A stretch of 52,513 bases of DNA, taken from the NCBI GenBank assembly GCA_035310805.1, contig DATGDO010000245.1, forward strand, positions 1 to 52,513. Direction: 5' to 3'. Of the stretch, positions 5,165 through 43,987 are shown piece by piece; position 1 is the first letter of the stretch, and each line of letters begins with the position of its first letter. The notes under the pieces are model-generated. The model was not told the DNA's origin and did no database searches. It saw nothing but the letters and a program-made list of their open reading frames with translations. The DNA is from Solirubrobacterales bacterium (GTDB lineage Bacteria > Actinomycetota > Thermoleophilia > Solirubrobacterales > 70-9). Both the position numbers and the translations under genes were made by a program.

Positions 5165-5393
5165 GGTCGGCGGAGGATAAGACGCCCCGCCGCGGCCGCC
5201 ACTGGTACGTGTGGCGAAAGACGCGCTCCAGCGGCGGCCGGCGCGTTGACGGCGCCGTACCCCCGGGCATCATTGGCCACCTTGCCGCGCTCGCGCTCGT
5301 CGCTCACGGCCCGCAGGGCGCTCAGCGTGTCGCTTTCGAGATGAATCCGCACCCCGAGGGCTTGCCCCGCGGACGGAGGGGGCGAAACGCGGG

Positions 5394-6578
5394 TCAGCCC
5401 CCGTTCAGCTCGACCAGGATCGCGTCGCCCTGGCCGCCGCCCGAGCAGATCGCGGCGCAGCCCAGGCCGCCGCCTCGGCGTCGGAGCTCGTGCACCAGCG
5501 CGCCGACGATGCGGGCGCCGGAGGCTCCGATCGGGTGACCGAGCGCGATCGCCCCGCCGTTGACGTTCACCTTTTCCTCGTCGATCTCCAGCATCCGCAC
5601 GGAGTTGATCGCGACGGAGGCGAAGGCCTCGTTGATCTCCCAGAGGTCGACGTCGCCGGGCTTCTTGCCGATCTTCTCGAGGGCCTGGATGGCGGCGCGC
5701 CCCGGGGTCTTGGCGAGGTAGGGGAAGTCATCCGCGACCTGGCCGTAGGCGAGCACCGTCGCGATCGGGCTCTTGCCGTTCTGCTTCGCCCACTCCTCGG
5801 AGGCAACCACCACGGCGCCGGCGCCGTCGTTGACCCCCGGCGAGTTGCCGGCGGTGTGGGTCGCGTCGTCGCTGCCGACGGCCTTCAGCTTGGAGAGCAC
5901 CTCCAGTGTCGTGTCGGGCCGGATCCCCTCGTCCGCGGCGACCTCGCTCTCGCCCTTCCTCGACTTGACGGTGACGGTGACGATCTCCTCGGCGAGCTTG
6001 CCGTCCTCGGTCGCCTTGTGGGCGAGCTGATGCGAGCGCTCGGCGAAGCGGTCCATGTCGGCGCGGGTGATCTCGAGCTCGTTGGAGACCTCGCTCGCCT
6101 CGTTGATCATCTGCTTCTCGGTGAAGGGGTTGGTGAGCCCGTCGTGGGTCATCGCGTCGATCGCGGTGACGTCGCCCATCCGGAAGCCGAAGCGGGCGCC
6201 GGGGAGCAGGTAGGGCGCCTGGCTCATCGACTCCATGCCGCCGGTGACGGCGATCTCGAGATCGCCGGCGCGAATCGCCTGGTCGGCGATCCCGATGCTG
6301 CGCATCCCGGACGCGCAGACCTTGTTGACGGTCTCCGAGGGCACCTCGCGCGGGATGCCGGCCTTGATCTGCGCCTGGCGGGACGGAATCTGGCCCTGAC
6401 CCGCCTGCAGCACCTGGCCGTAGACGACGCCCTGCACCTGCTCCGCGCTCACCTCGGCGCGGTCGAGCGCCTCCGCGATCGTGGTGCCGCCCAGGTCAGT
6501 GGCATCGAGGGAAGAGAGCCCACCGCCCATCTTCCCGAACGGGGTCCTGGCGGTGGAGAGGATGACCGTCTTCGACAT
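5394..6578 (-). CDS. acetyl-CoA C-acetyltransferase (thiolase II)
   Basis: 394 aa with active-site Cys context (VNKVCASGMRSI) and C-terminal thiolase motifs (NVNGGAIALGHPIGASGAR, GLGCAAICSGGGQG). Confidence 0.9.
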   Translation of the reverse strand: MSKTVILSTARTPFGKMGGGLSSLDATDLGGTTIAEALDRAEVSAEQVQGVVYGQVLQAGQGQIPSRQAQIKAGIPREVPSETVNKVCASGMRSIGIADQAIRAGDLEIAVTGGMESMSQAPYLLPGARFGFRMGDVTAIDAMTHDGLTNPFTEKQMINEASEVSNELEITRADMDRFAERSHQLAHKATEDGKLAEEIVTVTVKSRKGESEVAADEGIRPDTTLEVLSKLKAVGSDDATHTAGNSPGVNDGAGAVVVASEEWAKQNGKSPIATVLAYGQVADDFPYLAKTPGRAAIQALEKIGKKPGDVDLWEINEAFASVAINSVRMLEIDEEKVNVNGGAIALGHPIGASGARIVGALVHELRRRGGGLGCAAICSGGGQGDAILVELNGG

Positions 6579-6700
6579 CTGCGCCTTTCGTCTGCGCCGG
6601 CGGTCGATCCGCCAGGCTGTTGATCCGGCGGCGACGATTGCGGCCGCCGAAGATGCTGACCTCGAATGCTAGTCAGTCCCACCTGTAATCTGCCGACGCC

Positions 6701-8140
6701 TTGCGAGTCGAGGTCGCGGACAAGCCGCTTGCGGAGGTGGATGCGGACCTGCTCGCCGTGCTGCTGTTCGAGGGAGACGATCTTCCCGAGCCGCTCGCGG
6801 GGGCGCCGGGATCGGAGGATGTCCGGGCGGGCTACAAGAAAACCTCCATCGTCCACCCCGAGAGCCCTCGTCGCGCGCTGGTGATCGGCCTCGGCGACCG
6901 CGAGGAGTTCGAGCCGGAGCGCGCCCGGGTGGCGGGTGCCCTTGCCGCGCGGAATGCAGGCCCGCTGGAGGCCACCTCGCTGGCGCTGGCCGGCCCTGAG
7001 CCGGTGGACGCGCAATCAGCGGCGAGCGCGATGGTCGAGGGCGCGATCCTCGCCTCATACCGTTTCGATCGCTTCAAGTCCAAGAAGAACGGCAACGGCG
7101 GCGACGACACCGGCCGCCTTGAGGAGATCTCGGTGATCGGGGACCGCGCCCTCGCGGGCGGAGTTGAGGCCGCCCGGATCGCCGCCGAGTCCGCCAATTT
7201 CGCTCGCGAGCTCCAGGACCTTCCCGCGAATATCGTCACGCCCTCCTACCTGGCCGGTCGGGCGAAAGCGATCGCGGACGAGCATTCGACCGTCAGCTGC
7301 GAGGTGCTCGGCCGGGAGGAGATCCTCGCCAGGGGAATGGGAGGCCTCGAGGGGGTCTCCAGGGGGACCGTCGAGGAGCCGCAGCTGATCGTGCTCCGCT
7401 ACCAGGAGGGCGAGGGAGAGACGCTCGGTCTGGTCGGCAAGGGCGTCACCTTCGACACGGGCGGCATCTCGATCAAGCCGGCGGGCGGCATGCACGAGAT
7501 GAAGATGGATATGTCGGGCGCGGCCGCCGTGCTGGAGGGCTTCTCGGCGATTGCAAAGCTCGAGCTGCCGATCAACCTGCTGGCGGTGATCCCGGCCACC
7601 GAGAACATGCCCAGTGGCGCCGCTCTCAAGCCGGGGGACATCGTCACCCAGCTGAACGGCAAGACGGTGGAGGTGCTCAACACCGATGCCGAGGGGCGGC
7701 TGATCCTCGCCGACGCGCTCTGCTACGCGGTCGAGCTGGGCGCCGATCGGATCGTCGATCTGGCCACTCTCACCGGCGCCGTGGTGATCGCGCTCGGGTC
7801 GACGTACGCGGGGCTGATCTCCAACGACGACGAATGGGCCGCGGAGGTCGAGCGTGCGGCGAGGCGCACAGGTGAGCTCGCCTGGCGGCTTCCCCTGCAC
7901 CCCGAGTACAAGGAGCTCACCAAGGGCACCGATGCCGACCTGACCAACGCCTCCGCCAAGCGCAAGGCGAGCACGATCTACGCCGGCTCCTTCCTGGAGG
8001 AGTTCGTCGACGGCAAGCCGTGGGTCCATCTCGACATCGCCGGGACGGCGTGGGACGTCGGCCGCGAGTACGTCGGCAAGGGCCCGAGTGGGTTCGGCGT
8101 CAGGCTGCTGGTGGACCTCGCACGCAGCCTGGCCGGCTGA
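6701..8140 (+). CDS. pepA: leucyl aminopeptidase (M17, PepA)
   Basis: M17 signature region (GKGVTFDTGGISIKP, NTDAEGRLILADAL). TTG start at 6701. Confidence 0.9.
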   Translation: MRVEVADKPLAEVDADLLAVLLFEGDDLPEPLAGAPGSEDVRAGYKKTSIVHPESPRRALVIGLGDREEFEPERARVAGALAARNAGPLEATSLALAGPEPVDAQSAASAMVEGAILASYRFDRFKSKKNGNGGDDTGRLEEISVIGDRALAGGVEAARIAAESANFARELQDLPANIVTPSYLAGRAKAIADEHSTVSCEVLGREEILARGMGGLEGVSRGTVEEPQLIVLRYQEGEGETLGLVGKGVTFDTGGISIKPAGGMHEMKMDMSGAAAVLEGFSAIAKLELPINLLAVIPATENMPSGAALKPGDIVTQLNGKTVEVLNTDAEGRLILADALCYAVELGADRIVDLATLTGAVVIALGSTYAGLISNDDEWAAEVERAARRTGELAWRLPLHPEYKELTKGTDADLTNASAKRKASTIYAGSFLEEFVDGKPWVHLDIAGTAWDVGREYVGKGPSGFGVRLLVDLARSLAG

Positions 8141-29124: not shown

Positions 29125-30756
29125 CTAGTTCTCGGGGCTGAATTCCGGCACGTCGAGGACGCGACCGTCCAGCCGGCGCGGCTGGGTCGGTGGACGATCA
29201 CGGGGATCGCGCCCCGAGCCCCCGTCGCCGTAGAGCTCCTCGGCGCTGCCCGAACGCGGTCGGGGCGTCCCGCTGCCGCGCCAGTCGCCGACCGGGTCGG
29301 AGTAGCGCTCCGGCCGCAGCGCCGCGTCCCTGTCCGGGGTGCGCGGCTCGCGCGGCTCGGTGCGCCGGTCAAACCGGTGACTGCGGACATCAGCCGGATC
29401 GAAGCGGGTGGCGATCACGGTGATCCACACCTCCTCGCCGATGTCCTCGTCCACGCTGGCCCCGAAGATGATGTTCGCCTCGGGGTGGGCAGCCTCCTTG
29501 ACGACCGCCGCGGCCTCGCTCGCCTCGATCAGGGAGAGGTCGGGTCCACCGGTGATCGAGAGCAGCATGGAGCGCGCGCCCTCGACGGAGGTCTCGAGCA
29601 GCGGTGAGGAGACCGCCTTCTCGGCGGCCAGGGTCGCCCTGTGCTCGCCGACGCCCATGCCGATGCCGAGGATCGCGTTGCCCGCCTCGATCATCGTGGT
29701 GCGCACATCGGCGAAGTCGAGGTTGATCAGACCCGGCAGCATCACCAGGTCGGAGATTCCCTGCACGGCCTGGCGCAGGACGTCGTCGGCGACCCGGAAG
29801 GCGTCGACGATCGAGGTGCGTCGCTCGAGGATCGTCAGCAGGCGCTCGTTGGGGACGACGATCATCGTGTCGACCTCTTTGCCCAGCGCGGCGATCCCCT
29901 CCTCGGCCTGAGCGGCGCGACGGGCGCCCTCGAAAGCGAAGGGCCTGGTGACGGCAGCGACCGTCAGCGCGCCGATGTCTCGGGCCAGCTTCGCAACCAC
30001 CGGGGCGGCCCCGGTGCCGGTGCCGCCTCCGGAGCCGGAGGCGAGGAACACCATGTCGGATCCCTTGAGCAGCTCCTTGATCTTGTCCTGCTCCTCGAAG
30101 GCCGCGCGGTAGCCCACCCGGGGATCCGAGCCGGAGCCCAGGCCGCGAGTCAGCTCTGCGCCGATGTGAAGCGTGACGTCGGCCCTCGAGCTCTGCAGCG
30201 ACTGAAGATCCGTGTTGATCGCTACGAACTCCACGCCGGGTAGCTCGGCCTCGACCATCCTGTTGACCGCGTTGACGCCGGCCCCGCCGATGCCGACCAC
30301 CCGCAGGACGGCCTGGTGCGTTCTCGGCACAACGGGCTGCCGGGCGGCGGGCTGATCGGTCGAGGGCTCCTCGCGGCCGAACCTCGGCCGCCGCTCTCTG
30401 CCGGGTCCGCCCATCAGGCGCTCCAGGCCCTCGTGGTGGATCTCGGGGGCTTCGACGACCACCTTCGCCCCGGCAACGGGCTCCGGCGGGGTCGGCTCGG
30501 GAACCGGCTGCGGGCCGGGAAGCGGCTCGGGCACGGGATCGGGGGTCGGCTCCGGAACGGGCTCCGGGGTGGGCTCCGGAACGGGCTCGGGAGTAGGCGT
30601 CTCCCCGACGGGCGCCTCGACGGCGACCTCAACCTGGCCGGCGCCACCGTCGTTGGCGGTGACCCTGACCTGATCGGGCGCGACCGACTCGTCGGTCGTG
30701 CGGAAGAGATCGGCGAGGGGGCCCTCGCGCATGCTGGCGCGCTTGTTACGAGCCAT
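29125..30756 (-). CDS. ftsZ: FtsZ with ~150-aa N-terminal extension
   Basis: Core motifs LRVVGIGGAGVNAVNRM, tubulin signature GSGGGTGTGAAP, NTDLQSL, and C-terminal peptide LDVPEFS. ATG 30756 overlaps the parA stop by 11 nt. The extension keeps high third-position G/C. The alternative internal ATG is at 30414. Confidence 0.85.
   Translation of the reverse strand: MARNKRASMREGPLADLFRTTDESVAPDQVRVTANDGGAGQVEVAVEAPVGETPTPEPVPEPTPEPVPEPTPDPVPEPLPGPQPVPEPTPPEPVAGAKVVVEAPEIHHEGLERLMGGPGRERRPRFGREEPSTDQPAARQPVVPRTHQAVLRVVGIGGAGVNAVNRMVEAELPGVEFVAINTDLQSLQSSRADVTLHIGAELTRGLGSGSDPRVGYRAAFEEQDKIKELLKGSDMVFLASGSGGGTGTGAAPVVAKLARDIGALTVAAVTRPFAFEGARRAAQAEEGIAALGKEVDTMIVVPNERLLTILERRTSIVDAFRVADDVLRQAVQGISDLVMLPGLINLDFADVRTTMIEAGNAILGIGMGVGEHRATLAAEKAVSSPLLETSVEGARSMLLSITGGPDLSLIEASEAAAVVKEAAHPEANIIFGASVDEDIGEEVWITVIATRFDPADVRSHRFDRRTEPREPRTPDRDAALRPERYSDPVGDWRGSGTPRPRSGSAEELYGDGGSGRDPRDRPPTQPRRLDGRVLDVPEFSPEN
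30478..30600 (-). repeat. imperfect tandem DNA repeats encoding a Pro/Glu linker (TPTPEPVPEPTPEPVPEPTPDPVPEPLPGPQPVPEPTPPEPV) inside ftsZ
   Basis: Read directly: reiterated ggctccggaacggg / ggctcggg units on the plus strand, with a PEPxP periodicity in translation. Confidence 0.8.
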
Positions 30757-31726
30757 GGGTGAGGACCTCCTTTGCGAGCTCGCGGTAGGCACCCGCGGCC
30801 TTCGACTTCGGGTCGTACTTGAGGACCGAGGTGCCGCGGACCGGCGCCTCGGCGAACTTGATCGCCTTGCGGATCCGCGACTTGAAGACGAGCTCCCCGA
30901 AGTTCTCCTCGAGGATCTCCACGGCCTCCTTGGCATGGACGGTCCGCGAGTCGAGCATCGTCGGGAGGATGCCCTCGATCTCGACGCCGGGGTTGAGGTT
31001 CTCCCGGATCATCTGAAGCGTGTTCTGAAGCTGCACGAGGCCGCGCATCGAGAGGTACTCGCACTGGACCGGCACGATCACCTTGTCGGCGGCGGTCAGG
31101 GCGTTGACGGTCAGCAGCCCGAGGCTGGGCGGCGTGTCGATGCAGACGAAGTCGTAGTCGTTGCGGACGCCCTCCAGGCCCTTCTGCAGCGCCCGCTCGC
31201 GCCCGATCTGGGTGCTCATCGCGATCTCGGCGCCGGCCAGGTCGATCGAGGCGACGGCGACGTCGATCTCGCGCTCGACGATCACCTCGCTGATCGGGAT
31301 CCGGTGGACGAGCACGTCGAACATGCTCTTCTCGACCTTGTCGGGGTCGACGCCCTGGCTCATCGTCAGGTTGCCCTGCGGGTCCATGTCGACGGCGAGG
31401 ACGCGATGACCGGACTCCTTGAAGGCGACGGCGAGGTTCAGCGCCGTGGTCGTCTTGGCGACGCCGCCCTTCTGGTTCGCGAAGGCGATCACCTTGGCCG
31501 GGCCCTTGTTCTTGGGGGAATCGGGCTGCTTGGCCGGGCCGGAGGCGCCATTCGGAGCGTCGCTCCTGGGCTCGTCGGCGGCCTTGCCGTTGGTGGACCC
31601 AGACTCGGCCTGATCGGCCTCGCCTGAATCCTTTCTCTCAGGCGTCGGCGCGACCAGGTCCTCGGGCTTCATACGCCCCGCCTCGTCGACGGTTTGGGTG
31701 ACGTGCTTTCGGAGAAATCTGGGCAT
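30746..31726 (-). CDS. orphan ParA/Soj-family ATPase (PldP-like) with low-complexity N-terminal extension
   Basis: Deviant Walker A NQKGGVAKTTTALNL, plus VLAVDMDPQGN and FVCIDTPPSLG. No parB gene is adjacent. The alternative start ATG 31672 has GAGG upstream. Confidence 0.85.
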   Translation of the reverse strand: MPRFLRKHVTQTVDEAGRMKPEDLVAPTPERKDSGEADQAESGSTNGKAADEPRSDAPNGASGPAKQPDSPKNKGPAKVIAFANQKGGVAKTTTALNLAVAFKESGHRVLAVDMDPQGNLTMSQGVDPDKVEKSMFDVLVHRIPISEVIVEREIDVAVASIDLAGAEIAMSTQIGRERALQKGLEGVRNDYDFVCIDTPPSLGLLTVNALTAADKVIVPVQCEYLSMRGLVQLQNTLQMIRENLNPGVEIEGILPTMLDSRTVHAKEAVEILEENFGELVFKSRIRKAIKFAEAPVRGTSVLKYDPKSKAAGAYRELAKEVLTHGS

Positions 31727-31789
31727 CTATGGGCGCTATTTCGCAGGCGAGGCCCGCTTTCCTTCTCCTGGTTGGAAGAATCCGCGCGC

Positions 31790-32710
31790 ATGACTGATCT
31801 GCTCGACAAGCGATTGGCCTTCGTCACCGGCAAGGGCGGCGTCGGCAAGTCGACGATCTCGATTGCCCTCGGCCTCGCCGCGGCCTCGCGAGGCATGCGG
31901 ACGATCGTCTGCGAGATCGGCGGCCAGGAGACAGCCTCACGCATGTTCAGGCGCGCGGAGGTGGGCTTCCACGAGGTCGAGGTGGCGGACAACCTCTGGG
32001 CTATTTCGATCGACCCCGACCACTCCCTGCGCGAGTACCTGCTCTTGCAGCTCAAGGTCCGCGCGATGCGCGACATGCTGGTGCGCTCCAAGATCTTCAA
32101 CTACCTGGCGGCCGCCACGCCCGGGCTCAAGGAGCTGGTCACGATCGGAAAGATCTGGGAGCTCGCCCAGCCCGACCGCCGGGTGAAGAAGGCACAGGAC
32201 TACGACATCGTGATCGTCGACGCGCCGGCGACCGGCCACGGCATCGGTTTCCTGCAGACGCCGCGCACGTTCGCGGGGATCGCCCGGGTCGGACCCGTCC
32301 ACTCACAGGCGCAGGAGCTCGACCGGTTCATCACCGACCACGACGCGACCGGCGTCGCGATCGTCTCGCTGCCCGAGGAGATGCCGGTCAACGAGTCGGC
32401 CTCCCTCGAGCAGCAGCTCACCGACGACATCGGGATGTCCGTCGACCGCGTCTACATGAACGCGCTCTACCCGGAGCGCTTCGCCAAGGACGAGGCCTCC
32501 CAGCTCGAGAGGGCGCTCGAGCAGGCCGACGGGCCCGCCCGGGCAGCCGTGCGGGCCGCGCTCTCGGAGTACCGCCGCTCGCGCTCCCAGCGGGCGCAGC
32601 TGCAGCGCCTGAAGCGGGCGGTCTCCTCCCCCGTCAAGACCCTGCCATTCATCTTCAAGCCCTCCCTCGACGTGCCCTCCCTGGAGCGCCTGGCTGGGGC
32701 CCTGGTCTGA
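31790..32710 (+). CDS. ArsA/Get3-like P-loop ATPase (first of pair)
   Basis: TGKGGVGKSTISIALG and DIVIVDAPATGHG. It resembles the first member of the conserved actinobacterial ArsA-like pair (Rv3679-like). Confidence 0.75.
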   Translation: MTDLLDKRLAFVTGKGGVGKSTISIALGLAAASRGMRTIVCEIGGQETASRMFRRAEVGFHEVEVADNLWAISIDPDHSLREYLLLQLKVRAMRDMLVRSKIFNYLAAATPGLKELVTIGKIWELAQPDRRVKKAQDYDIVIVDAPATGHGIGFLQTPRTFAGIARVGPVHSQAQELDRFITDHDATGVAIVSLPEEMPVNESASLEQQLTDDIGMSVDRVYMNALYPERFAKDEASQLERALEQADGPARAAVRAALSEYRRSRSQRAQLQRLKRAVSSPVKTLPFIFKPSLDVPSLERLAGALV

Positions 32711-33855
32711 TGCCGACGATCACCGACATCGTCGAGGGACGCGGGATCTGCATCTGCGCGGGCTCGGGGGGCGTGGGCAAGACCACGACCTCGGCCGCGC
32801 TGGCCGCCGGCCTCGCGGCGCGGGGCCAAAAGGTCGCCGTGCTCACGATCGACCCAGCCAAGCGCCTTGCGGACTCCCTGGGCCTGACCGAGCTCGAGAA
32901 CACGCCCAGGCGCGTCGACCCGAAGCTCTTCGAGCGCGCCGGCATCGAGATGCAGGGCGAGCTCTGGGCGATGATGCTCGACGCCAAGGCGACCTTCGAC
33001 GAGCTCGTGCGCAAGCACGCGCCGGACGCCGAGACGCGCGACCGAATACTCGAGAACCGGATCTACCGGCAGCTCTCCAACGCCTTGGCGGGCTCTCAGG
33101 AGTACATGGCGATGGAGAAGCTCTTCGAGCTCCACCAGGAGGGCCGTTACGACTTCCTCGTCCTCGACACGCCGCCCTCGCGCAACGCCCTCGACTTCCT
33201 CGACGCTCCGAAGCGGCTCACCCAGTTCATCGAGGGGCGCGGGATGCAGATGTTCATGAGGCCGACGGGCTTTGCGACCAAGGTCGTCGGCCGCGGCAGC
33301 TCGATGGCCTTCAGCGTGCTGAAGCGGGTGACCGGCCTCGACATGCTCTCCGACCTGAGCGAGTTCTTCCAGGCCTTTAGCGGCATGGTCGACGGTTTCC
33401 GGGAGCGGGCCAAGCGGGTCTCGGAGCTGCTCGCCGACCCGGCGACCACCTTCGTCGTCGTCTGCGGACCGCAGGGCGAGCCGATCGAGGAGGCCGTCTA
33501 CTTCCACCGCAAGCTGGTCGAGGCCAGGCTGCCGGTTGGCGGCGTGATCGTCAACAAGGTGCACTACGAGGCCGAATCGGAGGCGGAGGGCGAGGCCGAG
33601 GCTGACCTCCACGGCCTCCTCGACGACGACCTGGCCGAACGGGTCGCGCACAACTTCTCCGACTACCAGGCGCTCGCCCAGCGTGACGCCAAGAACGTCC
33701 GCCACCTCGAGCGCGAGCTCAATCCAAGGGCCGTGATCCGGGTCCCCTATCTGGACGAGGACGTGCACGATCTCGACGCCCTGCTCAAGATCGATCGCTA
33801 CCTGTTCGCGACCGAGGAGCAGCGCGAGGAGCTGGCGGCCTCAGGCGCTGCGTAG
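32710..33855 (+). CDS. ArsA/Get3-like P-loop ATPase (second of pair)
   Basis: GSGGVGKTTTSAALA, TIDPAKRLADSLGL and FLVLDTPPSRNALDFL. Its ATG overlaps the upstream stop (TGATG). Rv3680-like. Confidence 0.75.
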   Translation: MPTITDIVEGRGICICAGSGGVGKTTTSAALAAGLAARGQKVAVLTIDPAKRLADSLGLTELENTPRRVDPKLFERAGIEMQGELWAMMLDAKATFDELVRKHAPDAETRDRILENRIYRQLSNALAGSQEYMAMEKLFELHQEGRYDFLVLDTPPSRNALDFLDAPKRLTQFIEGRGMQMFMRPTGFATKVVGRGSSMAFSVLKRVTGLDMLSDLSEFFQAFSGMVDGFRERAKRVSELLADPATTFVVVCGPQGEPIEEAVYFHRKLVEARLPVGGVIVNKVHYEAESEAEGEAEADLHGLLDDDLAERVAHNFSDYQALAQRDAKNVRHLERELNPRAVIRVPYLDEDVHDLDALLKIDRYLFATEEQREELAASGAA

Positions 33856-33861
33856 CTAAAG

Positions 33862-35547
33862 CTAGCCGCTCTGCTTCCTCTCGTACCGAAGCTCGCCGAC
33901 GGTCCAGTCGGTCGCGTCCGGGACCGGGAAGAGGTAGCGGACCCGGTCCTTCGAGGGCTCGCGGTCCGCGCTGCGATTGCGCCTTGGTCTCGCGAAGGCG
34001 GGCCATTCGGGCTCGCCGTCGCCAGCACTGAACCAATCGGCTCGATCCCCGGGCTCGGGCTGGGTCGTGGCGCGAGGCTCGCTCTCGGCTCCCATTAGAC
34101 GCGGTAGTTCGACGTCATCGACGACGATCCTCGTCGTCGGTTGCCGATCCTCCTCGCCTGCCCGGACGGAGAAATCGTCCAATTGGTTCGTCTCCGGCCC
34201 AGTTTCCTCTTCGGCCTTGTGAACGGAGATCTCGTCATCGGCGAGGTGGCCGTCGGCGATCGCCGAGAGCTCGAGCTTCTCCTCGGGCATCTCGGGCAGG
34301 CGCCACTCGGCTGTCTCCCCGATACCCGGAGTCTCGACGTGCGTCGCCGAGAGACCGTGGGAGAGCAGGACCTCATCGGCGGCGGCCCGCAGGTCTCCTC
34401 CCAGCTCCCCGGTCGCGAGACCCTTGAGCAGCCGCCGCAGCAGCTCCTCCAGCTCCGCGATCACATCCAGCGGCGAGGCGCCGGCCGCTGGCCGGTAGCG
34501 CCCGCCGCTCATCAGCTTTCTCTCGATCGCCAGGCCGCGCTCGACGGTGACCCGGCCCTGCTCGCGCTCGTTTGGCTCGCAGGCGAGCGCCGCGACGCGG
34601 GCGGACAGCGAGGTCCTCGCCGGACCGCCACCCTCCAGCAGGCCCCGGAGGGCGAGCAGGTAATCGCTCAGCGCCTCGATCAGTGATCCGCGCTCGGCTC
34701 CCAGCTCGAATCGGGATGCCGCCCAGTCGAGCTGGGGAACCCGCGAGCCCCGTTCGGCGAGCATGCGCGAGAAGCTCTCCAGCTCGGCGACCTCGTTGCC
34801 GGTCAGCCGGTAGCCGCCCTGGCGGGGGCGGCCGACGCCGGTGCCGAAGCGCTCCCAGCCGCCGGAGCGCCTCGCCCAGCCGTGGGAGGCGAGCCCGACC
34901 GCACCTGGCCTGAACAACCTCATGGTGCGAAGGGCGCGGCGAAGGTCGTCGGCCACCGCGGCGGCCGGGGCGACCGCGGCCAGTCCGCAGCTCAGGCAGG
35001 CGAGAAAGCCCGGCTTCCCCCGTCCCCCGGAGCGGGTTGCCTCGACCGCGTCGAGTGGCGCGTCCTCGACCAGGTCGGCGCGCACGATTCGAACCCCGTC
35101 GAGCTCGATCTCGTCCTTCGGCATGTGGAAGCCGACCAGCGGGACGATCACCTCACCGGCCGGCGTGGCCTCCTCCGAGTCCGACCGGATCATCGAGAGG
35201 ACCCCGTCGATCGCGCCGCGCAGCCTGTCTCCGGCCACGTCGAACTCGGCCTTGCCCTGCCAGAGGCCGACCATGAAGCCGATCGCGGCATCCTCGCCCG
35301 CGATCTCACGCACCTCAACGAAGGCCTCCAGGCGGCGCAGCTCGGCCAGATGGCGCTCGATGAACTGCCCCGTCAGGGGGGCGTAGGAGAACATCGGCAG
35401 CGGCCCGTCGTCTGAGGGCTCGAGGTCGAAGGGCATCTCCGCCCCGCTCGCGAGCAGCTCCTCGAAGAGGTCGGCCGCCTCCACCGCGAGGCGCCTCAGC
35501 GCCTCCTCGAGCCTGTCCGTCGTGCTCTCGAGCATCGTCACGCGCAC
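33862..35547 (-). CDS. large hypothetical protein (561 aa), no recognisable domain, acidic disordered C-terminal third
   Basis: Long ORF with coding-like third-position G/C and a GTG start (ATG 35535 is the alternative). No motif I can assign. Confidence 0.55.
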   Translation of the reverse strand: MRVTMLESTTDRLEEALRRLAVEAADLFEELLASGAEMPFDLEPSDDGPLPMFSYAPLTGQFIERHLAELRRLEAFVEVREIAGEDAAIGFMVGLWQGKAEFDVAGDRLRGAIDGVLSMIRSDSEEATPAGEVIVPLVGFHMPKDEIELDGVRIVRADLVEDAPLDAVEATRSGGRGKPGFLACLSCGLAAVAPAAAVADDLRRALRTMRLFRPGAVGLASHGWARRSGGWERFGTGVGRPRQGGYRLTGNEVAELESFSRMLAERGSRVPQLDWAASRFELGAERGSLIEALSDYLLALRGLLEGGGPARTSLSARVAALACEPNEREQGRVTVERGLAIERKLMSGGRYRPAAGASPLDVIAELEELLRRLLKGLATGELGGDLRAAADEVLLSHGLSATHVETPGIGETAEWRLPEMPEEKLELSAIADGHLADDEISVHKAEEETGPETNQLDDFSVRAGEEDRQPTTRIVVDDVELPRLMGAESEPRATTQPEPGDRADWFSAGDGEPEWPAFARPRRNRSADREPSKDRVRYLFPVPDATDWTVGELRYERKQSG

Positions 35548-36100: not shown

Positions 36101-36682
36101 GTGGACAGGGGCAAGGGCGAGGACTTCGAGACGATCGACGGCGTCCGGCTGTGCGTCCGCCCGATCACCCCGGAGGACAAGCTCGCGCTCGTGGGCGCCT
36201 TCGAGCATCTCAGCCAGGAGTCCGTCTACAAGCGCTTCCTGGCCCCCGTCAAGCGCCTCACGGAGAGCGAGCTCGCCTACCTCACCGAGCTCGATCACGA
36301 GGCGCACGAGGCGCTGGTCGCGGTCACCGAGGCGGACGAGATCGTCGGGGTGGCCCGCTACGTCTGCGAGCTCGAGGACCCCGGTCGGGCCGAGGTCGCG
36401 GTCACGGTTGCGGACGAGTGGCAGGGCCGCGGGGTCGGCACCGCCCTGCTGCAGATGCTGGCGAGGCTCGCCGGGGAGAACGGCGTCGAGCACTTCACCG
36501 GCGTCTGCCTGGCCGAGAACAGGGAGATGCTCCAGCTCTTCGACGAGCTGGGGCCCACCACCCGGCGTCGCTCCGACGGCGAGGTGATCGAGGTCGAGGT
36601 CACCCTGCCGGCGAGGGCGACGCACGCGATCCGCCCCGCGCTGCGGGCGGCCGCCAGGGCGCGGAAGAGCTCAGCCGACTAA
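36101..36682 (+). CDS. GNAT family N-acetyltransferase
   Basis: GGAGGAGGGA lies ~10 nt before GTG 36101. GNAT motif A ([24 protein letters not shown]). Confidence 0.75.
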
Positions 36683-37779
36683 GCGACTTCGCGGAGCTTC
36701 TGCGCTTCCGCCAGCGACTGCAGCTTCTTGAGCGACTGGTTCTCGATCTGCCGGATCCGCTCGCGGGTGACGTTGAAGGTGCGGCCGACCTCGTCCAGGG
36801 TGCGCGGATGCTCGCCCCCGAGCCCGTAGCGAAGCTCGAGCACGCGACGCTCGCGGTAGGAGAGGTTCTCGAGGGCTTCCTTCAACGCCTCCTTGGTGAG
36901 CAGCTCCGCGGCGCGCTCGAAGGGAGACTCGGCACGCTCATCGGCGATGAACTGGCCGAACTCCGACTCCTCCTCGTCGCCGACCGGCTTCTCCAGCGAG
37001 ACCGGGGCCTGCGCCGAGCGCTTGATCGAATCGACCTCCTCGGGCTCGATGCCGGTGACCTCGGCGATCTCCTCCGGAGTGGGCTCGCGGCCCAGCTCGG
37101 TGACCAGCTTGCGCTCCGCGCGCCCGATCTTGTTCAGCTTCTCGACCACGTGGACCGGGATGCGGATGGTCCGCGCCTTGTCGGCGAGCGCACGGGCGAT
37201 CGCCTGGCGGATCCACCAGGTGGCGTAGGTCGAGAACTTGAACCCCTTGCGGTAGTCGAACTTCTCAGCGGCTCGAACCAGACCGAGCGTGCCCTCCTGG
37301 ATCAGATCGAGGAAGGGCAGGCCCTGGTTGCGGTAGTTCTTGGCGATCGAGACCACCAGCCGGAGGTTCGACTCCACCATCTTCTGCTTGGCGTCGAGGT
37401 CGCCACGCTCGATGCGCTTCGCGAGCTCGACCTCCTCGGCGGCGGTGAGCAGCCTGACCTTGCCGATGTCCTTGAGGAAGAGCTGCAGGGAATCGGTGGT
37501 CATGTCCGGCTTCAGGTCGAGCGCCTTCTGGCGCTTGCGACCGCGCTTGCCGTCGGAGCGCTCGTTCTCGGCGGCGGCCTTCTGGGCCGGGTCGAGGTCC
37601 TCGACCAGCTCGATGCCGTTCTTCTCGAGGTGCCCGTAGAGGTCCTCGACGTCGGATTCGTCGAGCTCGACCTCGGACACTGCGCTGGCGACGTCGCCGA
37701 AGGTGAGGACGCCGAGCTGCTGGCCTCTGGTGACCAGCGTCTTTACTTCTTCAAGCTCTTGGATCTCCGCTACCAGCAT
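36679..37779 (-). CDS. principal (group 1/2) RNA polymerase sigma factor, HrdB/SigA-like
   Basis: Regions 1.2 to 4.2 are present ([70 protein letters not shown]). ATG 37779 was chosen, with AGGAAGGAAGAG upstream. Confidence 0.9.
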
Positions 37780-37909
37780 TCGCCTACGCTCTTCCTTCCT
37801 GGCTGTCTTTCGGTTTCCTGGCTGTAGGTCCGTGTACCTGACTCTCGGGGGACCTGAACTCATCTCCCCCGCTGACGAAAACCCTTACTCCATCCCCCTC
37901 AGAGGCCAC

Positions 37910-41653: not shown

Positions 41654-42607
41654 TCAGGCCGCCCTGGCCAGCGAGAGCGCGTAGAGGCCGTCGGAGTCGG
41701 TCCACCAGTCGGTCAGCTCGAGACCGGCCTCGGCGTAGATTCCCTCCAGCCCCGGCCGAAGGAACTTGGTGGAGATCTCAGTTCGCATCTCCTCGCCGGC
41801 GCCGAACGGCACCTGCATGTCGAGCCCGGAGACGTTGACCACCTGGTTGGCCTGCGAGCGCAGCCTGATGTCGACCCAGAGGTTCTCCGGGTCCCAGCGG
41901 GCCACGTGCTCGAAGGAGTCGAGGTCGAAGTCGGCGCCGAGCTCGCGGTTGAGGACCGAGAGCACGTTCTTGTTGAACTCCGCGGTCACACCCTTGGAGT
42001 CGTTGTAGGCGGCCTCGAGGATCGCCGGGTCCTTGACCAGGTCGGTGCCGAGCAGGAACCGGTCCGCCGGGTCGAGCAGGTTCGCGATGCGGCGCAGGAA
42101 GCCCGCGCGCTGGTGTGGGGCGAAGTTGCCGATCGTGCCCCCGAGCAGGGCGATCACTCTCGGACCGCCGACCGGGACGCGCTCGAGGTCGAACTCGATG
42201 TCGCAGACCAGGCCGCGGACATTGATTCCGTCGTACTCGGCCGCGATCCGCTCGGCCGTCTCACGGGTGATCTCCTCGGAGATGTCGACCGGGCAATACG
42301 TCTCCAGGCAGCCGGCGTCCCTCATCGAGTCGAGCAGGACACGGGTCTTGCGCGCTGAGCCCGAGCCGAGCTCGATCAGGCTCGCCGGGCGGTTGGCCGC
42401 CTCGCAGATCTCCGCCGAGCGGCCCTGCAGGATGGCCCGCTCGCAGCGGGTGGGGTAGTACTCCGCGAGCTCGGTGATCTGCTCGAAGAGCTCCGAGCCT
42501 CGCTCGTCGTAGAAGTAGCGCGGGGAGAGCTCCTTGAAGGGCCTCGTCAGGCCGGCGCGAACGTCCGCGGCCATGCCGGAGAGCGGCCCGCCCGGAGGCA
42601 GGTTCAC
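41654..42607 (-). CDS. egtD: L-histidine N-alpha-methyltransferase (ergothioneine biosynthesis EgtD)
   Basis: ELSPRYFYDERGSELFEQITELAEYYPTRCERAIL, LIELGSGSARKTRVLL, and GTDLVKD...AYNDSKGVTAEFNKN. Confidence 0.85.
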   Translation of the reverse strand: MNLPPGGPLSGMAADVRAGLTRPFKELSPRYFYDERGSELFEQITELAEYYPTRCERAILQGRSAEICEAANRPASLIELGSGSARKTRVLLDSMRDAGCLETYCPVDISEEITRETAERIAAEYDGINVRGLVCDIEFDLERVPVGGPRVIALLGGTIGNFAPHQRAGFLRRIANLLDPADRFLLGTDLVKDPAILEAAYNDSKGVTAEFNKNVLSVLNRELGADFDLDSFEHVARWDPENLWVDIRLRSQANQVVNVSGLDMQVPFGAGEEMRTEISTKFLRPGLEGIYAEAGLELTDWWTDSDGLYALSLARAA

Positions 42608-42742
42608 CTCGACGGTGATGCGGTCGGTGCTTGTCTCGGCGGGAGTTATGTCGGGTCCGATCCTTGGCTGTCCTCGTGCTCGCCCTGGCTTCGGATCAGT
42701 CGTTGGGGCTCGAACGCCTCGGGCCGCCGTGGTGTGATCTGC

Positions 42743-43987
42743 TCATTCGGCATCCCTCGCGCAGCGGATGCCGGAGAAGATCTGCCGACGCTCCGGCAGG
42801 TCCCAGTTACGGAAGCTCGTGCGGATCACGTCGCGACGGGTCGCCCACGCTCCGCCCCGTAGAACCTTGTGGGCGTCGCCGAAGAAGACCTCCGAGTACT
42901 CCGGGTAGGGGAAGGCGGCGAAGCCCGGGTACGCCGTGAAGTCGGAGCTGGTCCACTCCCAGACGTCGCCCAGCATCTGCAACGCCCCGCAAGCGGACGG
43001 CGCATCGCCGTAGGCACCCACCCGCGCGGGGGCGAAGGAGAGCTGGTCGAGGTTTGCCCGCTCGCGGCTGGCTCCCGCGGCGGCCACCTCCCACTCCGCC
43101 TCGCTCGGCAGGCGCTTGCCGGCCCAGCGCGCGAACGCGTCGGCCTCGGGCCAGGAGACGTGGATCACCGGCAGCCGCCGATCGACCTCCTCGGTGCGGC
43201 CCATGGCCGTCCGGACCCAGCTCCCGTCCCCCTCCCGCTCCCAGTACATCGGCGGCTCGGCCCCGGTCTCCTCGAGAAAGACGATGTAGTCGCCGTTGGA
43301 AACGGGGGTACGGTCGATCAGGAAGGAGGCGACCTCGACTCGGTGGCGGGGCCGCTCGTTGTCGTAGGCGAAGCCCTCCGGGCCTGCCCCGATCTCGCGC
43401 TCGCCGCCCTCGACCGGGATCATCTCGGGTCCCTCCGTGACCGGCTCGGCCTCGGCTGAGCCGTCGAGGGCGACCGGCTCGTAGGACTCGACCATCTGCA
43501 GCAGCTGCAGCATCGTCTCGTTGTGCTGCTGCTCGTGCGCGAGCAGCATCTCGTAGACGAAGCCGTCGGCCAGCAGCCGGTCACCGGGATCGAGCTCGAT
43601 CTCGCCGAGCACCTCGAGCGTCCGCTCCCGCACCTGCTCCATGTAGGGGCGGACCTCGTCGGCCCTCAGGATCGGGAGCTCGCCCCGGATCTTCCGCGGC
43701 TGCTCGATCGCGTCGTAGAGCTCGCCCAGGTCGCCCCGCAGAGGCTCGCGGTGGCCGATCCGCCGCACCAGCCAGAGCTCCTCGAAGTTTGCGATGTGGC
43801 CGAGATCCCAGATCAGCGGGCTGAGAATGGGGTCGTATACCCGGTTGAGCTGCTCCTCGGTGAGCGGCTCGATCAGCTCGAGGGTGTGGCGCCGCGCCTC
43901 CTCCAGACGCCCGGCCAGGGCGGCCTTGCGGCCGGAGGCGGGACGAGATCCACCCTCCGTCGTCGGTGCAGCGACCTCCGCGATCAG
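42743..43987 (-). CDS. egtB: ergothioneine sulfoxide synthase EgtB (DinB_2 + FGE-sulfatase domains); start codon non-canonical or unresolved
   Basis: C-terminal FGE-like motifs (GDVWEWTSSDFTAYPGF, RGGAWAT, SFRNWDLPERRQIFSGIRCA). The conserved N-terminus (LNRVYDPILSPLIWDLGHIANFEELWLV) is read in frame upstream of the first GTG (43768). The frame is open back to stop TGA 43988-43990 and contains no ATG/GTG/TTG. Confidence 0.8.
   Translation of the reverse strand: MIAEVAAPTTEGGSRPASGRKAALAGRLEEARRHTLELIEPLTEEQLNRVYDPILSPLIWDLGHIANFEELWLVRRIGHREPLRGDLGELYDAIEQPRKIRGELPILRADEVRPYMEQVRERTLEVLGEIELDPGDRLLADGFVYEMLLAHEQQHNETMLQLLQMVESYEPVALDGSAEAEPVTEGPEMIPVEGGEREIGAGPEGFAYDNERPRHRVEVASFLIDRTPVSNGDYIVFLEETGAEPPMYWEREGDGSWVRTAMGRTEEVDRRLPVIHVSWPEADAFARWAGKRLPSEAEWEVAAAGASRERANLDQLSFAPARVGAYGDAPSACGALQMLGDVWEWTSSDFTAYPGFAAFPYPEYSEVFFGDAHKVLRGGAWATRRDVIRTSFRNWDLPERRQIFSGIRCARDAE

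Follow-up and report, generated by a model that had tools for sequence, protein, structure and literature searches.

An invariant basic peptide at the N-terminus of Thermoleophilia FtsZ, a candidate tag for the co-encoded ParA

The division protein FtsZ of a Solirubrobacterales bacterium (class Thermoleophilia) begins with an invariant basic peptide, which we propose to be a docking and ATPase-activating tag for a ParA-type ATPase encoded immediately upstream, with FtsZ itself as the direct target or cargo of that ATPase. We put the probability of this reading, which is drawn from sequence comparison, at about 0.5. The gene lies on contig DATGDO010000245.1 (assembly GCA_035310805.1), and the whole stretch that was analysed, 52,513 nucleotides (nt) long, is referred to here as the window. 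Its ftsZ open reading frame (ORF) spans 29125-30756 on the minus strand and encodes 543 amino acids (aa), of which residues 1-23 (30688-30756, minus strand) read MARNKRASMREGPLADLFRTTDE, as they had been given in a preliminary description of this DNA. That description had hypothesised a ParA-interaction tag on FtsZ, which our results support in part. Thermoleophilia are abundant in soil and almost unstudied. Actinobacteria are without Min and Noc, the choice of their division site is a long-open question, and the partner of the ParA paralogues PldP and Rv1708 is unknown (PMC3989709, PMC10482377). In the literature on FtsZ in Thermoleophilia genera, on ParA-like proteins and on N-terminal peptides of FtsZ, we found no description of this tag.

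The peptide was followed through homologues, a profile search and matches in genomes. The 120 best homologues retrieved with the whole FtsZ protein (72-100% identical, 528-555 aa; the few that bear names are metagenome-assembled genomes (MAGs) of Solirubrobacterales) all carry M-A-R-x-K-R-A-S-M-R-E-G-P-L-A-D-L-F-R-S/T-T-D/E-E. Across the class the core of the peptide is K-R-A-S-M-R-E-G-P-L-A-x-L-F-R-x-T, in which K5, R6, R10 and R19 are invariant. Five Lys or Arg residues fall within positions 1-19, G12-P13 is followed by L14-A-x-L17-F18-R19, and some lineages read GPLAALFRK in this region. A profile of 37 columns made from the peptide was searched against 1.84 billion representatives of 50%-identity clusters at E<=1e-3, and returned 1024 proteins. 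The best 150 of these all carry the peptide at or near their predicted N-terminus; three of them are fused gene calls, in which ParA C-terminal sequence stands ahead of the peptide. Beyond the peptide, the sequences of the best 150 are unrelated from one representative to the next. About 15 extend as far as the GTPase motif, and all of these are FtsZ; most of the others are short fragments, and no family other than FtsZ was seen among the best 150 of the 1024 matches. The peptide, which recurs in hundreds of independent sequences, is no chance feature.

A degenerate DNA pattern for the peptide matched at least 120 species genomes, and the genome counts in this text are counts among the matches listed. 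Their record titles name Solirubrobacterales or Solirubrobacteraceae, Thermoleophilaceae, Gaiellaceae or Gaiellales, and unclassified Actinomycetes MAGs. The preliminary description had proposed a survey of orthologues, and the extension was found to be conserved in at least 120 genomes of three orders (Solirubrobacterales, Thermoleophilales and Gaiellales). In every genome listed an ATG precedes the match by 2-5 codons, and wherever enough downstream sequence is available the FtsZ core follows about 95-200 codons past the peptide. Amino-acid identity at the positions of the pattern is circular for this genome set; independent of the pattern are the identity of the peptide in the 120 whole-protein homologues and the profile search. 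The tag is a class-level feature of Thermoleophilia FtsZ and, at the stringency used, is found on no other protein.

The apparent exceptions, in 13 of the 120 genomes listed, are frameshifts in the ftsZ linker that follows the peptide, which put the tag and the core into different reading frames; they come mostly from Microflora Danica (MFD) MAGs (loci L004, L015, L023, L025, L038, L040, L046, L053, L064, L077, L084, L092 and L112). These are most likely assembly indel errors in low-complexity DNA, and they explain many short or odd database 'proteins' (such as P0124, P0127 and P0133). Two loci, L116 and L082, have unusually long tag-led ftsZ ORFs (605 and 923 aa). One record, CAMCUD010000008.1 (L006), is labelled 'MAG: Bifidobacterium breve', yet it has 73% G+C and a Thermoleophilia parA-ftsZ pair; it is most likely mis-binned or mislabelled.

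The G+C content at codon positions 1/2/3 was 0.82/0.55/0.87 in the extension and 0.72/0.50/0.90 in the rest of ftsZ, which bears out the earlier remark that third positions of the extension are mostly G or C. Upstream of 30756 the ftsZ frame gave 0.38/0.95/0.63, and there the coding signal lies in the parA frame, so that the change of coding frame from parA to ftsZ falls exactly at 30756. The extension had been judged genuinely coding, and this frame change together with the conserved peptide upholds that judgement. A Shine-Dalgarno sequence, AAGGAGG (30766-30772, minus strand), lies 9 nt before the ATG at 30756, inside the conserved K-E-V codons of the ParA C-terminus, and 116 of 119 related genomes among the matches listed have a GGAG-type match ending 7-12 nt before the corresponding ATG. 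Codons 5-8 (K-R-A-S) lie between the parA stop and Met9, clear of the overlap between the two genes; their amino acids are fixed, yet as many as six synonymous codons are used for them in different genomes, and synonymous codon variation is observed throughout residues 1-23. Because of the frame change, the upstream Shine-Dalgarno sequence and the conservation of K-R-A-S under synonymous codons, ATG 30756 is the true start of ftsZ. That the extension is an annotation artefact, with translation really starting from Met115 or Met9, is scarcely credible. Met115 is encoded at 30412-30414, where the earlier reading had placed it, with a GGAG 6 nt upstream of its ATG, and some gene callers do choose Met9. 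Against this stand the frame change, the conserved Shine-Dalgarno sequence ahead of Met1, the protein-level conservation of residues 5-8 and the third-position G+C of 0.87 across the whole extension. In addition, Met115 is kept only within a close clade and is replaced by Phe in other lineages; therefore a product of this internal start cannot be the conserved one.

In all 119 genomes listed that have upstream sequence (frameshifts allowed), parA lies directly upstream of ftsZ, and in about 110 of the 120 genomes its stop codon falls 8-29 nt inside ftsZ. In the window the parA stop and the ftsZ start share 11 nt (ATGGCTCGTAA; 30746-30756, minus strand), an arrangement that implies translational coupling and is likewise present in the Solirubrobacterales locus L001. 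ParA is the only neighbour conserved across the orders. BagA/B-like ATPases and a gamma-glutamyltranspeptidase stand near the pair in the window and in L001, and in a Gaiellaceae locus their place is taken by an Fpg glycosylase. The parA-ftsZ junction alone is under selection in this neighbourhood.

The upstream gene (30746-31726, minus strand) had been described as a co-encoded ParA-like ATPase, and our comparisons agree: by its domain matches and motifs it is a deviant Walker A ATPase of the ParA/Soj type. It matches the Pfam family AAA_31 with 206 bits, and also CbiA, and its best solved relatives are a Mycobacterium smegmatis protein (4PFS, 206 bits) and Myxococcus xanthus ParA (8RAY, 199 bits). 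Residues D113, D115 and N119 align to the catalytic D58, D60 and N64 of the M. xanthus protein, and K290 aligns to R238, a DNA-binding position, so that a basic residue is kept there. The Walker A motif reads KGGVAKT in 88 of 88 distinct ftsZ-linked ParA orthologues; the same form is present in 4PFS, and the chromosomal ParA of Myxococcus and Thermus has KGGVGKT. Of the MipZ profile only positions 2-141 of 262, its generic P-loop half, were matched (49.9 bits), and no full-length match of the window ParA to MipZ was obtained. The core of the ATPase covers residues ~77-326; its start codon is uncertain and its N-terminal ~75 residues are variable. Comparison of this N-terminal extension (31499-31726, minus strand) with the regions upstream of ParA in loci L003, L009, L012, L013 and L043 showed a lineage-conserved motif, G-R-M/I-x-A-x-D/E-L/A-I/L-A-P-T-R, which in the window is EAGRMKPEDLVAPTPE; the ParA of Gaiellales begins with M-G-L-S/I-R-L-L-P-R instead.

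The protein that carries the peptide looks like the genuine division FtsZ of its Solirubrobacterales (Thermoleophilia) host and no degenerate paralogue. Pfam finds Tubulin at residues 152-310 (149 bits, cut-off 33) and FtsZ_C at residues 359-452 (102 bits, cut-off 27), and with the NCBI equivalog model TIGR00065 for ftsZ the score is 397 bits (cut-off 295) over query residues 145-455. The canonical GTPase and C-terminal domains occupy 29401-30303 (minus strand), with the tubulin signature GGGTGTG at residues 243-249 (30010-30030) and the T7 loop NLDFADV at residues 345-351 (29704-29724), in which the NxDFAD synergy loop is present. The C-terminal linker, the peptide LDVPEF (residues 534-539; 29140-29157) and the stop codon make up 29125-29400 (minus strand); an alignment of 41 relatives shows no variation at V536 and P537-E538, and almost none at L534, D535 and F539. 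LDVPEF is likened to the C-terminal peptide with which FtsZ binds SepF or FtsA, and at the end of a disordered C-terminal linker it resembles a partner-binding peptide, which we predict it to be. Since GGGTGTG, NLDFADV and LDVPEF are all present, the protein is taken to be a working division FtsZ. Its core opens with LRVVGIGGAG at residues 151-160, in accordance with the 150 preceding codons counted earlier. Homology to the full-length solved FtsZ chains of M. tuberculosis (1RLU), Bacillus subtilis (2VAM) and Pseudomonas aeruginosa (2VAW) sets in at query residues 143-149, which correspond to chain residues 6-12; its N-terminal surplus is therefore about 140 residues. When the extension by itself was scanned with Pfam and NCBIfam, only low-complexity Pro-rich matches (TonB, internalin) came up, which are meaningless here.

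One alternative is that this basic, amphipathic N-terminus tethers FtsZ directly to the membrane, or to DNA and the nucleoid, independently of ParA. Five Lys or Arg within the first 19 residues and a small hydrophobic face (L14, L17 and F18) would suit such a role, the GPLAALFRK lineages look more like a membrane-targeting helix, and FtsZ proteins with a membrane helix of their own are described for Mycoplasma and Odinarchaeota. We nevertheless consider a tether improbable. Tethers conserve physicochemical character and not 15 consecutive identical residues throughout a class; E11 and the Asp or Glu at position 16 disfavour anionic surfaces; the hydrophobic face consists of three residues only; and the canonical LDVPEF peptide, which would serve as the protein tether, is retained at the C-terminus.

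Another comparison is offered by peptides that activate ATPases of the ParA/MinD type. These peptides stand at the extreme N-terminus, are basic, form a short amphipathic helix and are followed by a disordered tether (PMC7993993), and the class spans the non-homologous proteins ParB, MinE, ParG, PomX, McdB and TlpT (PMC7993993, PMC13170346). The tag of FtsZ, at residues 5-21, is likewise placed in an unstructured extreme N-terminus with a Pro/Glu-rich linker next to it. It fits this generic class of activators, as far as composition, position and gene order can indicate, in being basic, in having a predicted disordered tether and in being encoded together with an ATPase.

Within that class, the preliminary description had likened the peptide to the N-terminus of ParB/Spo0J in particular, and here the likeness is limited to L14, L17 and F18. 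In M. xanthus ParB the motif occupies residues 11-19, L11-G-R13-G-L15-x-x-L18-I19, with L11, L15, L18 and I19 as its hydrophobic residues; R13 is essential for activation, and about half of ParB proteins have Lys in its place (PMC12462528). The FtsZ segment P13-L14-A15-x16-L17-F18 (Asp at 16 in the window) runs in register with ParB G14-L15-x-x-L18-I19, so that three of the ParB hydrophobic positions i/i+4/i+7/i+8 are matched and position i is R10. Given this register after a Gly, which is common to the ParB motif (PMC12462528), and given that ftsZ stands in the usual place of parB after parA, the peptide might be a true derivative of a ParB N-terminus, captured when ftsZ replaced parB, and might bind in exactly the manner of ParB. 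This is very improbable. The LG(R/K)G half occurs in no tag sequence among hundreds (the best 150 profile matches and at least 120 genomes), the profile of the peptide gave no ParB matches among PDB sequences, and the motif is too short for homology to be shown by it. With that half missing, the arginine shifted and the profile devoid of ParB, the tag falls, judging from the residues themselves, outside the ParB motif family.

Several points weigh against the reading of the peptide as a ParA-activating tag. The L-G-(R/K)-G half of the ParB motif, which holds the residue essential for activation, is replaced in FtsZ by R10-E11-G12-P13, and the arginine is found three positions earlier. Profile alignment to ParB N-termini had been suggested as a check, and the peptide profile, when searched against 177,635 sequences of the PDB, found no ParB chain even at E<=10. 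The residues that line the ParB-helix pocket of M. xanthus ParA (V116, L150, L152, L155, L187 and L192) correspond to I168, L202, L204, V207, M239 and L244 in the window ParA, and those of the arginine site (Y81, E82, D110 and E117) to F136, D137, D162 and A169; that the pocket is kept speaks for the tag, but this evidence is weak, permissive and not discriminating, because ParA proteins in general conserve the pocket residues. Covariation of peptide positions 16 and 20 with the columns of ParA was also tried and discarded, since phylogeny dominates it and the pocket is not singled out: several of the top-ranked columns (105, 130, 282 and 307) show compensating charge changes, which reflect one or two lineage splits, and these columns lie outside the pocket. 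An AlphaFold2 model of full-length FtsZ was unusable (mean predicted local distance difference test score 43 and predicted template modelling score 0.27, with 41 homologues) because the alignment was too shallow, all sequences being at least 80% identical. Finally, a conserved peptide in a gene adjoining parA could still bind some other partner.

Residues 24-94 (30475-30687, minus strand) form an acidic, Pro-rich tether predicted to be disordered, which includes the PEPVPEPTPE repeat string. In the preliminary description this was a rigid Pro/Glu spacer at residues 53-93; the imperfect tandem DNA repeats were found as stated (Tandem Repeats Finder: period 12/24/54 at 30488-30592, score 133), the string itself lies at residues 56-94 (30475-30591), and it is no conserved rigid spacer but the form that a hypervariable acidic linker, with two semi-conserved motifs embedded in it, takes in one lineage. 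The linker is variable at residues ~24-108 in the window protein and ~75-180 residues long among the genomes listed, with Pro 19%, Glu 15%, Ala 15% and a median net charge of -11; the total extension in these genomes measures 98-203 aa. The first motif, ERLxxxF/M, was recognised in a pre-core alignment of 96 genomes about 40 residues before the core; in the window it is EGLERLMG (residues 109-116; 30409-30432, minus strand), which is invariant among close relatives. The second, R[FY]GRxEP, is PRFGREEP in the window (residues 124-131; 30364-30387, minus strand) and is lineage-restricted, being found in 18 of 95 genome sequences and the window's clade; Gaiellales FtsZ has PYEPPASRFxxPMPExAPRL in the pre-core region instead. 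These motifs may be additional binding sites.

It is conceivable that the peptide serves a partner or regulation other than ParA, such as the tuning of FtsZ assembly or a switch by a Ser/Thr kinase at position 8. ParA would then be co-expressed with FtsZ, and its target would be the chromosome or, as for MipZ, the FtsZ core. We regard this, the main rival, as unlikely but deserving of serious weight. At position 8 (30733-30735, minus strand) 116 of 119 genomes listed have Ser and the other 3 have Thr; this conserved hydroxyl, which follows two basic residues, could be the target of a Ser/Thr kinase within the tag. The ERLxxxF and R[FY]GRxEP motifs hint at several partners, the peptide has no sequence relation to ParB, and other clade-specific N-terminal peptides of FtsZ affect polymerisation and not ParA binding (PMC6175996). 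Such a role would leave unexplained why only the overlapping parA-ftsZ junction stays syntenic across three orders, and in where it sits, how it is charged and how it is tethered the peptide follows the pattern of ParA activators.

If the peptide does act as a ParA tag, the following sequence of events may be envisaged. ParA dimers in their ATP-bound form would sit on the nucleoid, and the tethered peptides of FtsZ, many of them per filament, would bind a hydrophobic cleft at the dimer's edge by the L14/L17/F18 face that a short helix presents. The basic residues upstream of this face would then trigger ATP hydrolysis and release, and a two-component ParA system, with FtsZ assemblies as its cargo or target, would set the place of the Z-ring. 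We infer the binding, the activation of the ATPase and the direction of regulation, which might be positioning or inhibition, from the features described above. That the Z-ring of Thermoleophilia is placed by so minimal a system, with FtsZ filaments as multivalent cargo of nucleoid-bound ParA and without an adaptor, is a tentative proposal that we would sooner doubt than assert. If it is true, division would be placed at mid-nucleoid or between nucleoids by a flux or ratchet mechanism, as for plasmids, carboxysomes and the PomXYZ cluster. No simpler ParA-based positioning system would have been seen so far, and the modular activating peptide would prove to be one that can be grafted onto a cytoskeletal polymer. 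Even if the link to ParA fails, a class-invariant motif of 20 residues at the FtsZ N-terminus points to a conserved interaction of unknown kind in cell division.

The surroundings of the pair were also examined. A scan of 121 parA-ftsZ loci for ParB-box motifs found no parB within these loci, and a scan of the same loci for tubulin signatures found no second ftsZ, L116 alone having two signature matches. Family scans of the ORFs in ~1-45 kb of the window found neither parB nor genes of the dcw cluster. Divergent from parA, at 31694-33855 (plus strand), are two tandem ATPases of the Get3/ArsA fold; they match best the models for BagA (150 bits) and BagB (351 bits) of M. tuberculosis, although neither score reaches the curated cut-off; L001 likewise has one ArsA-like gene divergent from parA. 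An ORF of 561 residues with good coding statistics follows at 33862-35547 (minus strand) and has no Pfam or NCBIfam match, and in L001 an unannotated gene of 574 aa (5170-6894) lies a few kb upstream of parA. A full-length sigma-70 factor with regions 1.1 to 4 (36679-37863, minus strand; 394 aa) is located 6 kb from parA-ftsZ, consistent with a core chromosomal region. Farther on, at 41654-43987 (minus strand), lie adjacent genes for an EgtD-like, histidine-specific S-adenosylmethionine methyltransferase and for an EgtB-like DinB_2/FGE-sulfatase protein, which make up a pair for biosynthesis of the ergothioneine type.

Among known systems, a clade-specific conserved N-terminal extension of FtsZ that is needed for normal function is described for heterocyst-forming cyanobacteria (PMC6175996). 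The Anabaena/heterocyst cyanobacterial peptide is unrelated to that of Thermoleophilia, is shorter (~50 aa) and affects polymerisation, and no linked parA gene is described for it. Closer at hand, M. tuberculosis FtsZ is without an N-terminal tag, 1RLU starting 6 residues before the core. The closest solved structure to the window ParA, M. smegmatis ParA-like 4PFS, shares with it the unusual KGGVAKT. Genes of the PldP/Rv1708 type presumably adjoin scpAB/xerD rather than ftsZ. Orthology of the window ParA to PldP or Rv1708 could not be established, the gene identity of 4PFS being unstated in its paper. PldP of Corynebacterium and Rv1708/MSMEG_3743 are themselves actinobacterial ParA paralogues implicated in the choice of division site, with no known activating partner (PMC3989709, PMC10482377). 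MipZ of Caulobacter is a ParA-like ATPase that acts directly on FtsZ, as is proposed here for Thermoleophilia; it differs in binding the FtsZ core or polymer end and in being positioned by ParB, and the FtsZ that it regulates has no such tag.

The known activating peptides of ParB/Spo0J, MinE, ParG, PomX (NPEP), McdB and TlpT resemble the FtsZ tag in being ~20 residues long, at the extreme N-terminus, rich in Lys and Arg and partly helical, and also in belonging to a disordered region and to a gene that adjoins that of the cognate ATPase (PMC7993993, PMC12462528, PMC13170346). The tag, known here from its sequence alone, is unrelated to them in sequence and has no LG(R/K)GL, and its carrier is FtsZ itself and not a DNA-binding, scaffold or topological-specificity protein. 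Should the inference about ParA hold, it would be a variant of the ParA-activator theme in which the tag sits on the cytoskeletal polymer itself. Beside MipZ and PldP/Rv1708, the nearest systems include PomXYZ of M. xanthus, where a nucleoid-bound ParA-type ATPase and a cargo with an N-terminal activating peptide decide the site of FtsZ assembly. In PomXYZ it is the scaffold PomX that bears the peptide, PomY is required as a second activator and FtsZ is recruited secondarily, whereas in Thermoleophilia no adaptor genes are seen next to parA-ftsZ and the peptide is on FtsZ.

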